Positions 2,023 through 28,418 of a stretch of DNA of 64,000 bases are shown one piece after another. The notes below the pieces were generated by a model that had not been told where the DNA came from, ran no database searches, and saw only the letters and a list, made by a program, of their open reading frames with translations. The stretch spans positions 9,548,001-9,612,000 of the forward strand of contig NC_042997.1 of the NCBI RefSeq assembly GCF_006345805.1, read 5' to 3'. Within the stretch, counting starts at the first letter, position 1. The number at the start of each line of letters is the position of its first letter. Both the position numbers and the translations under genes were made by a program. Origin of the DNA: Octopus sinensis. Taxonomy: Eukaryota.

Positions 2023-2035
2023 TTATATATTATTA

Positions 2036-2368
2036 TGGAGATGTACTCACATAGCAAGTGACCTGATCTGAAATCGTGTGCTTAAACAAAAACAATTGCA
2101 GCATGGAAGGTGTTTATAAACCATTTAAAAACTCACAAAACTATTAGATTCACTTCAACATTTAAATTCAATTTGTTAAAACATATTCGTTGCTTTGAAA
2201 CCGCGACCAGTTCACTGAGAAAAGAGATGCAGCACAGAATTTTGTCAGTGAACAGGTTGCGGTTTCTAAGCAACGAATATATTTTGACAAATTAAATTTA
2301 AGTGTTGAAGTGAATCTAACGGTTTTTGTGTTTTTAAATGGTTTATAAACACCTTCCATGCTGTAATT
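2036..2368. mobile_element. Inverted dimer of a ~205-bp Penelope-like non-autonomous element carrying hammerhead-like motifs
   Basis: ~130-bp arms (2093-2223 vs 2237-2368) are reverse complements. 16-bp TSD gcattatatattatta (2020-2035) / gcattatatatcatta (2369-2384). The monomer recurs at 27870-28074. Confidence 0.8.
2241..2291 (+). ncRNA. Hammerhead-like motif with GUGAACA core; A15.1 mutated in this copy
   Basis: tttgtca-GTGAACA-g-gttgc[ggtttctaa]gcaac-GAA-tatattt-tgacaaa. Stems I and II pair perfectly. Confidence 0.55.
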
Positions 2369-2739
2369 GCATTATATATCATTATTATTATTATATTACA
2401 TAATAATGTTGTTATACAATATTATATAATAATGCTGTTATATAATGTTGTTGTTGTTGTTGTTGTTCAACATTTGGTAGTTTCAGACAAATTTCTACTC
2501 CATCACCTGCTATACATCTCTGTTACTGGGGTGTGCACAGCTTTGTGTGTTCTTTTTTGTTGTTGGAACTGTACAATCTCTTTCCGGTATTGTATTGCAT
2601 CAGTTTCTTTCTTTTAAGTCTTTTGTTGTATTAGTGTTGATATTGTGCACTGTGTGTGTAATGCATTGGGTATGCAGCCTGCTGGTGGTAGCTTATTTCC
2701 ATGGATATTTACTATATAGACTGTGTCTTGCATTTGCGG

Positions 2740-8094: not shown

Positions 8095-8900
8095 ATTTAG
8101 AAATACCCCAAATGCATACTCTCCACTCCAATTAGGAAGAAAAGAGGGGATGAAACCAATAAACTGTCCACAGTCTGTCTACCTTATGTGAAAGGCCTCT
8201 CTGAAAAGTTACAAAAAGTTACATCCCATGACATCAGGACAGTATTCAAAAGTAATACAACACTTCGCAAATATCTCCTTCAAGCAAAACCACTAATAGA
8301 AGAGAATATGACTAAGAACTACATGTACTCCATCCCATGCAGCTGTGGTAGGTTATACAAAGTCGAAACATGCAGCCCCCTCAAAATAAAGATAGAGGAA
8401 CATCAGTGAGATATTGATAAATTGGGTATAGCTGATCGTGTATGGAAAAACGGAGACCATCTCTCCCTGTGGGATGAAGTTAAAATAATATACAGAGAAC
8501 ACCACTGGAAAATACAAAAGCTAAAAGAAGCAGCACATATGTTAGGACACAATGACCTCCTAGGCAGACCAAGTGCAGATATGAACAGCATATGGGAACC
8601 GGTATTAAGGAAGGATAGGAGAATATTAGATTTATAAGCCCTAAAATTCACTCCATAATGACCCACGGCATATGGCGTAGTGGTTAAGAGCACAGGCCAT
8701 TAACCCCAAGATTCCGAGTCTGAATAATAATAATGATGATGATGATGATAATAATATCGAAATATACCTTAGGAATGAGAACCCAGGTTCAAAATTTCCC
8801 CAAGGCACCTAATGAAGGCTGAAGGGTATATCAGCTGAAATGTTGTGTTAACAACAAACAAGATGAGGACAAATATCCATTAATGGTAAATAATGTTCTT
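8095..8900 (+). mobile_element. Penelope-like element 3' part (GIY-YIG endonuclease remnant plus terminal region)
   Basis: CLPYVKGLSEKLQK..IRTVFKSNTTLRKYL..YSIPCSCGRLYKVET..KIEEH..WDEVKII..KLKEA, followed by a tRNA-like segment and a hammerhead relic. Confidence 0.88.
8805..8848 (+). ncRNA. Degenerate minimal hammerhead ribozyme (G5A)
   Basis: gcac-CTAATGA-a-ggctga[agggtata]tcagct-GAA-atgtt-gtgt, downstream of the PLE ORF. Confidence 0.65.
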
Positions 8901-26975: not shown

Positions 26976-27044
26976 CTATATTAAAAACACTGAATTATTA
27001 TTACCAAACTTTTTATTTTGTTATTGTTATTATTATTACTATTA

Positions 27045-27599
27045 CTGAGTGAGAGAGTAATGCATGCCATCAAAGTGATACTGGGGTAAAAATATACAAA
27101 GCCCATTATATCCATTATGATTACCCATCTAATAAGGGTACACTAGGCACATGCATCACAACCATATGTGCGTGACATGGTGATCTCATATTAAGATAAA
27201 CAGCACATGACCTCGCAGGTGGGGCCCAGTTAGAATTTTCTTCTAGTCGAGTAACCCATCTCACTCAAAAGGTCCCTGAATAAGGGTTGTTTAAGGATGT
27301 TGAACGATACACCCATGTTTCCAGAGGTGAATTATTCAAACTAAAGAATTCCTCTCAACACATGGCTATGATGCTCCCCCACTATTTCTGCTCATGATCA
27401 GAGATGCACATATCGTCAGCCACTAAGGGACATGCTCAACTGGTTAAGGTCAAACAACTGACAAGCAAATCTGTAGTATTGAGCAGAATATTTGCTGCAG
27501 CCCATCTTTTATACCAAGACAAATCAATGCACATGATAACACTTCCAATCAGTAGAAAGCAAAAGCCATGTAGCCACTGTCTGGTACTGTATCAGGGCA
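27045..27599 (-). mobile_element. ~550-bp non-coding retroposed element in (TAA)n, copy 2
   Basis: Aligns with 1495-2022. Confidence 0.85.
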
Positions 27600-27869
27600 A
27601 GGTACTGCATCAATTATCATTATTATCATTATTATTATTATCGTCATCATCATTATTATTATTGTTGTCGTTATTGGTTTCTTAAGTAGTCATCACATAC
27701 TTTCGCTCTATAAGTTTTGTTGATTTTCACTTGTTTACATAATATTTCTTGTTAACATTTTTTATTACAAACTGTAAAGGGAACACCCTACATTACCCTG
27801 ACACCTTTTAATATTTGGGCCAAAGTCCCTGTTAGTACAAATTTTAAACACATTACAACCACAAAATTA

Positions 27870-28074
27870 CGGAGATGTACTCGCATAGCAAGTGATTTGA
27901 TCTGAGATCGTGTGCTGAAATGAAAACAATTGCAGCGTGGAAGGTGTTTGTAAGCCATTTAAGAAACACACAAAAGCCGTTCGATTCACTTCAACATTTA
28001 AGTTTAATTTGTCAAAATATTTTCGTCGCTAAAATCCACCACCTGTTCACTGACAAAAATCCGTGCTGCATCTC
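27870..28074 (-). mobile_element. ~205-bp Penelope-like non-autonomous element (monomer)
   Basis: 13-bp TSD aaccacaaaatta (27857-27869 / 28075-28087). Homologous to 2036-2223. Confidence 0.85.
28008..28057 (-). ncRNA. Hammerhead-like motif with GUGAACA core
   Basis: tttgtca-GTGAACA-g-gtggt[ggatttta]gcgac-GAA-aatatt-t-tgacaaa. Palindromic stem III aatatt. Confidence 0.6.
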
Positions 28075-28418
28075 AACCACAAAATTATAAAATAAAAAAA
28101 AGAAGTCATCATCCCCTTCCACACTTGCAAAATCTGCAAAGATATTTCACATGTGCAAACAATGATTCACAACAGCAGCAAAATGCTCAAAACACAACTC
28201 CAGCATCACTGGTAACACCACCACTACAAAAACAACCATCAACAATAGCAACAAAATCAACAACAGCAACAACAACTCTACACAGAAAAATTGACATAAA
28301 TTTCCTGCACCATCACAAGAACTTCAAAATATAATGAAAATAACATAACAAAATATGACAACACTACCATGAACATTGCCATCACCAACACCATCACTAC
28401 CACCACTGCAGCATATAA

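Follow-up and report, generated by a model that had tools for sequence, protein, structure and literature searches.

The 205-bp element at positions 27870 to 28074 of the window, the 64,000-nt stretch of Octopus sinensis DNA analyzed here (35% GC and rich in repeats), probably makes up the terminal module of a Penelope-like element (PLE) that is autonomous and of the Neptune/Nematis type. It carries a hammerhead fold with a swapped G3-C8 core pair and is predicted to be a slow self-cutter, assisted by a partner or by a protein. The G3-C8 pair itself is genuine and runs through the whole family, a natural variation on the minimal Penelope hammerhead; the element is otherwise of a known kind.

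Anatomy of the window copy

The copy lies on the minus strand (27870 to 28073) and represents a terminal, or pseudo-LTR (pLTR), module of the young subfamily, consisting of a 5' untranslated region (UTR) with the hammerhead and the first ~30 codons of a parent open reading frame (ORF). This assignment is based on genomic copies in which the same module follows full ORFs. The parent ORF begins at an ATG (27958 to 27956, minus strand) and is cut off where the copy ends (27870 to 27958), as seen from an in-frame junction at locus L166 and from independent contigs. The element had been called noncoding in a preliminary description of this DNA, which does not apply to these last ~90 nt. An ATG three bases inside the module also opens a 19-codon frame (28071 to 28012, minus strand) that runs across the hammerhead to a stop in the 3' strand of stem I.

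The copy is flanked by an identical 14-bp target-site duplication on the left (27856 to 27869, plus strand) and on the right (28074 to 28087, plus strand). The last bases of the left duplication overlap the element's own TAA end, and the right one begins with the G found immediately before the module when the minus strand is read. The 13 bp originally given for the duplication are correct if this terminal G is counted as part of the element, whereas assigning the G to the target makes the duplication 14 bp long.

A minimal type I hammerhead motif of 50 nt occupies 28008 to 28057 on the minus strand. It is composed of stem I (UUUGUCA/UGACAAA, 28051 to 28057 with 28008 to 28014), the swapped core GUGAACA (28044 to 28050, with G3 at 28050 and C8 at 28045), stem II (28038 to 28042 with 28025 to 28029), GAAA (28021 to 28024), the palindrome AAUAUU (28016 to 28021) and a UUU triplet with position 17 at 28015, the predicted cut falling between 28015 and 28014. 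One extra G separates the core from stem II. Stem I, the core, GAAA, the palindromic stem III and UUU, all named in the preliminary description, are present in the sequence; stem II is present as well but damaged in the window copy, where two substitutions relative to the family result in a G.G mismatch and a U.G wobble. In total, the window copy differs from the family-typical copy at locus L004 at four positions, two of them in stem II. The 50-nt fold gave z = −4.24 for the family-typical copy (0 of 200 shuffles as good) and z = −1.25 for the window copy (20 of 200 shuffles as good). The window copy, with its damaged stem II, is likely an inactive, decayed by-product.

In the family-typical copy, stems I and II, the G10.1-C11.1 pair, the extra base, GAAA, the palindromic helix III and the NUH triplet were all found, in agreement with the earlier assignment to the minimal type I hammerheads of the Penelope kind. 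The core reads GUGAACA instead of CUGANGA, and Rfam scans of the window and of the locus returned no hammerhead match, confirming that CUGANGA descriptors and Rfam miss the family.

The G3-C8 pair is a family-wide trait

We found 2,049 candidate copies of this family (family A) in the 2.72-Gb genome, and 40 scored copies were 97 to 100% identical to the window module. A metagenome scan returned no relative. A 30-nt family pattern with positions 3 and 8 left free had 1,093 exact genome matches and none in a reversed control; G3-C8 was present in 95 of the first 100 matches listed, and C3-G8 was present in none of them. When the genome was searched for the form with an 8-nt loop, a pattern that misses the older subfamily with its 9-nt loop, 1,832 matches had C8 and 60 had a different base (31 G8, 21 T8 and 8 A8). 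G3 was found in all 100 listed among the 1,832 C8 matches and in 59 of the 60 others, none of which was C3-G8. Among the aligned distinct copies from fetched loci, which cover both subfamily ages, 170 of 182 carried G3-C8 in the core GUGAACA. These counts bear out the initial view that G3/C8 is a family trait and not random decay.

The preliminary description had been staked on conservation of stems I and II, and we detected no common non-CpG variant in either the stems or the core: the hammerhead sites with a minor allele of at least 10% were four positions in loop II and two CpG sites in stem II. All four non-CpG differences between the subfamilies inside the hammerhead fell in loop II, and none in the stems or core.

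At core position 8, C-to-G changes were more frequent than C-to-T and C-to-A changes, and the G8 copies (L299 to L328) did not share a second variant. The excess of C-to-G may reflect a mutational hot spot, errors of the reverse transcriptase (RT) or conversion by sister-family RNA. A G3.G8 source lineage within the young subfamily was considered and found no support; because there is no second shared variant and 4 of the 16 copies examined have a partner arm with C8, the G3.G8 copies look sporadic. Five copies of the older subfamily are also G3.G8 (L149, L151, L155, L179 and L182, two of which are duplicates) and could be a trace of an intermediate between C3-G8 and G3-C8.

C3-G8 cores in sister families with the same fold

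The protein of a second family (family B) is 54% identical to that of family A over 814 residues, and its hammerhead occupies the same place, before an N-terminus that is homologous (ungapped identity at 10 of 25 residues). A pattern of the same architecture that did not demand G3 gave 2,265 matches versus 42 in controls. These were mostly C3-G8 cores of older family B copies and of families C and D, which are linked by their N-terminal codons only. Families B, C and D share this fold and retain C3-G8, and their stems II and III have changed in a paired way; the 3-8 pair is Watson-Crick in both forms, G-C in family A and C-G in its sisters. By parsimony, G3-C8 would be the derived state, arisen in family A.

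We then aligned 23 hand-picked rows from the four related families. Position 3 was paired with position 8 in all 23 rows, and five pairs had both partners exchanged; among them were 3-8, 15.2-16.2 and a pair of stem II, with stem I also represented. The covariation score was 0.305 compared with 0.170 for shuffled alignments; none of 500 shuffles reached it, and slid controls stayed at or below 0.13. Further pair types in these 23 rows did not rise above the shuffles (145 of 500). The covariation supports the 3-8 and stem pairs through few independent events, since only four related families contribute.

A very young subfamily of family B, in which 40 scored copies were 100% identical over 221 bp (L178:6240-6460 and L239 to L268), carries C9 in the core in 49 of 49 matches, in place of the A9 of older family B copies. 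Both the spread of this C9 subfamily and the higher than expected number of G3.G8 copies (31 of the 60 non-C8 matches, plus five from the older subfamily) suggest that selection on fast catalysis is weak. Starting from locus L269, we looked for a sister family with U3-A8; the relatives of this locus were mostly C3-G8 (7 of 12 motif rows, among 30 loci), and we therefore claim no such family.

The module belongs to an ORF-bearing Penelope-like element

Three of the first 30 copies extended upstream in common sequence. A search with this upstream segment gave 393 candidates, the module was also present in 29 of the 30 that were fetched, and walking along the segment led to a GIY-YIG domain and RT-like frames. 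PF01541 (GIY-YIG) scored 25.3 bits on a fragment at L123, above the cutoff of 22.6. The module was present in all eight family A RT loci fetched at 10 kb; five of these also had an inverted module at the 5' side, and one had only the inverted module within the stretch.

At locus L161, a 1,042-codon open frame is followed by a microsatellite-rich 3' UTR of ~900 nt and then by the G3-C8 module. The encoded protein contains the motifs DKS, D..SL, GGAIG, YVDD and VYQI/YIG, a Cx3CxxC linker at residue 913 and two cysteines between residues 934 and 951. At L166, a tandem junction, the module reads in frame from its ATG into the RT ORF, and contigs from three of four other runs bridge the junction between module and ORF. 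Pfam did not call an RT on the family A ORF and gave a weak RVT_1 match on family B (E = 0.002). Three close homologues were found, and PDB returned no match. The family has a single ORF with RT plus a C-terminal GIY-YIG domain, as in EN+ PLEs, a CX2-5CxxC linker with cysteines between GIY and YIG, and a pLTR from a partial tandem with an inverted 5' partner, a tail and AT-rich targets. Based on sequence motifs, and not on a tree, we assign the parent to the autonomous PLEs of the Neptune/Nematis type. The idea that Penelope machinery moves the module is upheld. The accompanying idea of a nonautonomous, retrozyme-like family is not supported: in the eight RT loci the module is the 3' end of autonomous copies, and it reads in frame into the ORF.

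Several other Penelope-like sequences were encountered. At L177 (G000:C17:58533000-58542999), two family B elements are arranged head to tail with a period of ~3.9 kb, and a head-to-head pair adjoins them on the 5' side, as in a textbook partial tandem. L122 holds a further long RT frame, which has a stretch rich in N, ends in a GIY-YIG-like region and belongs to a different Penelope-like family. Within the window, 8101 to 8409 is a fragment of the endonuclease region of a Poseidon-type Penelope element, whose family has 2,372 candidates and a canonical C3-G8 hammerhead. This family was rejected as a partner of the module: none of 30 loci had the module, and 3 of 30 had a canonical C3-G8 motif in unrelated sequence.

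Copies share a fixed start and two 3' ends

To describe the 3' ends, we used the 117 copies that had not been chosen by their 3' end. Of these, 45 ended at module positions 145 to 154 and 56 at positions 195 to 207. The two sites lie ~35 and ~90 nt into the ORF, 55 bases apart, and delimit a "tail" of ~55 nt (27870 to 27924, minus strand, in the window copy); they would correspond to start sites of reverse transcription. Loose ends at the same two sites were seen in contigs of other runs, and in family B the two ends fall at homologous codons.

When 30 copies were taken in genome order, 15 continued into the UTR and 15 began at, or at most 3 nt upstream of, a fixed base, which is 28073 in the window copy (minus strand), the A of the upstream CTC-AG, and a putative transcription start. 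A G replaced the C of the parent in 11 of these 15 short copies (P = 4 × 10−6 at 18% G) and, across all fetched loci, at 32 of 51 short junctions, a total that includes sets biased toward G. The base preceding this G was A at 15, T at 11, C at 5 and G at 1 of the 32 junctions, and hence followed the composition of the flank rather than being conserved. That an untemplated G can be copied from the RNA cap is an idea from LINE-1 work, and one untemplated G fits the copying of a cap. In the window copy and at L076, the extra G falls within the duplication, so that it may derive from the target or be paired with a target G.

Among 30 copies chosen by the last 118 nt (two of which duplicate each other and two of which were seen in earlier sets), 21 started within 16 nt of the fixed base and one ran upstream. 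Seven started in the hammerhead before the cut site, one started after it and none started at it, and the cut site was spanned by 29 of the 30. Since no copy starts at the cut site and the hammerhead is whole in nearly all copies, the templates appear to have been mostly uncut. Together with the fixed base and the two stops, the extra G in 11 of 15 short copies indicates that these are likely copies of a capped, uncut 5' RNA end. L226/L359, considered as a full-length copy from the start base, contained only a module and a short inverted piece.

Paired modules are mostly head-to-head

The other two copies in the window, both of the older subfamily, form a pair at 2032 to 2369. The left arm (2032 to 2223, minus strand) has a tail, is 5' truncated and carries the core GTGAACT (2215 to 2209), in which A9 is changed. 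The right arm (2224 to 2369, plus strand) is tail-less, begins with G + AG and carries GTGAACA at 2248 to 2254. Both core readings agree with those first reported. The pair had been described as a dimer; its arms lie on opposite strands, 5' to 5', and not in tandem, and a single transcript thus cannot carry both hammerheads in sense. Among the first 100 of the 1,832 matches listed, pairs within 250 bp comprised 16 inverted (head-to-head) and 2 same-direction cases. An unrelated 600-bp repeat (81% identical) adjoins both hammerhead loci of the window in the same orientation (1442 to 2022 and 26994 to 27599); this is probably a coincidence, as the two modules belong to different subfamilies.

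Discussion

We propose the following sequence of events. Transcription of a tandem copy would begin at the fixed base and give a capped RNA comprising module, ORF, UTR and module. The element's protein would nick AT-rich DNA and start reverse transcription internally at one of two sites. A start in the downstream module would yield long or truncated copies, while a start in the first module would reach the cap after ~150 or ~205 nt and leave a solo module like the window copy, in many cases with a cap-derived G; head-to-head pairs could result from two of these first-module products. Cutting is likely occasional and would need a second hammerhead, engaged through the palindromic AAUAUU, or a bound protein; it may free the ORF RNA or yield monomers and circles. 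Cofolding of a dimer by minimum free energy gave an alternative duplex and not the helix III dimer. By analogy, the swapped core could work, as G3-C8 rescues other hammerheads: C3G/G8C is the sole core double change to restore activity in a full pairwise scan (PMC9901934), it partly rescues the Penelope hammerhead of PAc (PMC11167929), and a review also mentions the rescue (PMC8495972). A bolder and tentative version, which we place somewhat short of even, is that this is a natural G3-C8 hammerhead not described before, that an active retrotransposon lineage came through a two-step fitness valley in the ribozyme core and afterwards kept the flipped pair as a working, protein-gated cutter, and that its thousands of solo copies record the capped, uncut PLE 5' end, its start and both RT start sites. 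If so, solo copies would map the transcription start and both RT start sites to the base.

Rather unlikely, in our judgment, is that the same parent carries a G3-C8 motif that is now a non-ribozyme, with a fold that persists because it binds protein, acts as a promoter or controls translation, and a swap that drifted in through a dead intermediate. Uncut templates, with none of 30 copies starting at the cut site, would fit this, as would the recurring G3.G8 copies, the amplification of sister family B with C9, the in vitro insertion of PAc with no need for hammerhead cleavage (PMC11167929), and the proliferation of Naiads without canonical hammerheads. On the other hand, the Watson-Crick 3-8 pair was restored exactly, by the only rescuing core double change, and U4, G5, A6, A9, GAAA and NUH are kept in both old and young subfamilies, as would be expected under selection for the active conformation; in addition, the G3.G8 copies look sporadic, with no common second variant and a C8 partner arm in 4 of 16 examined. 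Improbable to a greater degree is that the 5' boundary is a splice acceptor and that the short copies stem from spliced RNA, with GAG as the end of the first exon. The boundary does resemble an acceptor, having a branch-point-like CTAAC, pyrimidines and CAG (the parent reads CTAAC...TTTCTCAG upstream), and in Penelope, 46 nt beyond the start, there is an intron (PMC2377424), which in Drosophila virilis ends at helix I, just before the hammerhead. Against splicing, the base upstream of the single G is not conserved over the 32 junctions, so that the first exon would be 3 nt long, and, as a weak point, the fragmentary contigs of four runs taken as RNA contain no GT..AG joint.

Two further readings concern the class of the element. 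An independent nonautonomous family, retrozyme- or SINE-like, that a borrowed Penelope enzyme amplifies by way of small circular RNAs of the family's own, would explain why short copies (2,049 candidates) far outnumber ORF copies and why contig depth, which is not a copy number, is far higher on the module than on the ORF; the size also matches retrozyme monomers, and vertebrate retrozymes derive from pLTRs. We regard this as very unlikely, given that the module ends ORF-bearing copies of the same subfamily and is neither noncoding nor independent of an ORF, that head-to-tail arrays of monomers, as in non-LTR retrozymes, are absent among the first 100 of the 1,832 matches listed, and that copies are bounded by a fixed start and two internal sites and not by the cut site, as a ribozyme-made circle would be. 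A MITE-like DNA element with the short terminal inverted repeat GAGATG...CATCTC has a negligible chance of being right. Complementarity extends to seven of eight terminal bases of the window copy, whose ends are paired in the fold, but the parent lacks the outer G, the ends and the lengths of the duplications vary, and 5' truncations, inversions and an RT/GIY-YIG parent are traits of retroelements; the parent ORF effectively refutes it. The reading that we prefer remains a PLE terminal module with a swapped hammerhead that is predicted to cut slowly.

As far as the available reports go, the natural variation at 3-8 described to date is U-A, and G3-C8 is known as an engineered rescue. A fixed natural G3-C8 pair means that descriptor searches undercount ribozymes. 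Sister elements of one genome provide a matched set (G3-C8, C3-G8 and C9) for asking what Penelope hammerheads do. The fixed ends and the extra G give a simple account of solo pLTR modules that dispenses with a separate nonautonomous family, and this account bears on the annotation of "retrozymes" and of SINE-like Penelope pieces.

In our incomplete survey of published natural variants, U3-A8 was the only natural exchange reported (PMC4209133, PMC3088659), no natural G3-C8 hammerhead was found, and "G3-C8" appeared with "hammerhead" as an engineered variant only (PMC3884650). The minimal type I PLE hammerheads of Cervera and de la Pena (2014, PMC4209133) likewise have an extra base between 9 and 10.1, G10.1-C11.1, GAAA, a short palindromic helix III, NUH and a location in the pLTR. 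Their extra base has the consensus H, while it is G in family A, and of the 56 representatives shown in their Fig. S3, 53 have C3, 3 have U3 and none has G3, in contrast to GUGAACA here. EN+ Neptune/Nematis PLEs (Craig et al. 2021, PMC8557442) share the single ORF with RT and then a C-terminal GIY-YIG domain, the CX2-5CxxC linker, the two cysteines between GIY and YIG, and a pLTR with a hammerhead, an inverted 5'-truncated partner, an optional tail and a (TA)n target bias; family A differs in its tail of ~55 nt (30 to 40 in theirs), in its G3-C8 core and in that most copies are a bare module. Metazoan non-LTR retrozymes (PMC7229834; bioRxiv 10.64898/2026.07.22.740005) are likewise small and low in GC, with a type I hammerhead and Penelope ancestry. 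They form noncoding head-to-tail arrays of cut-to-cut monomers, whereas the family A module terminates a coding element and occurs singly or head-to-head. PAc, a Poseidon element of Anolis carolinensis (Frangieh et al. 2024, PMC11167929), is similar in that a hammerhead sits at the ORF start, a pair of internal RT start sites within the first codons defines the tail, targets are AT-rich and, as shown in vitro, uncut RNA is the template. It belongs to the Penelope/Poseidon clade and has C3-G8, its G3-C8 form being an engineered, partly active double mutant, and the pile-up of an extra G at a fixed 5' base, for which the available text on PAc has no counterpart, is a feature of family A.
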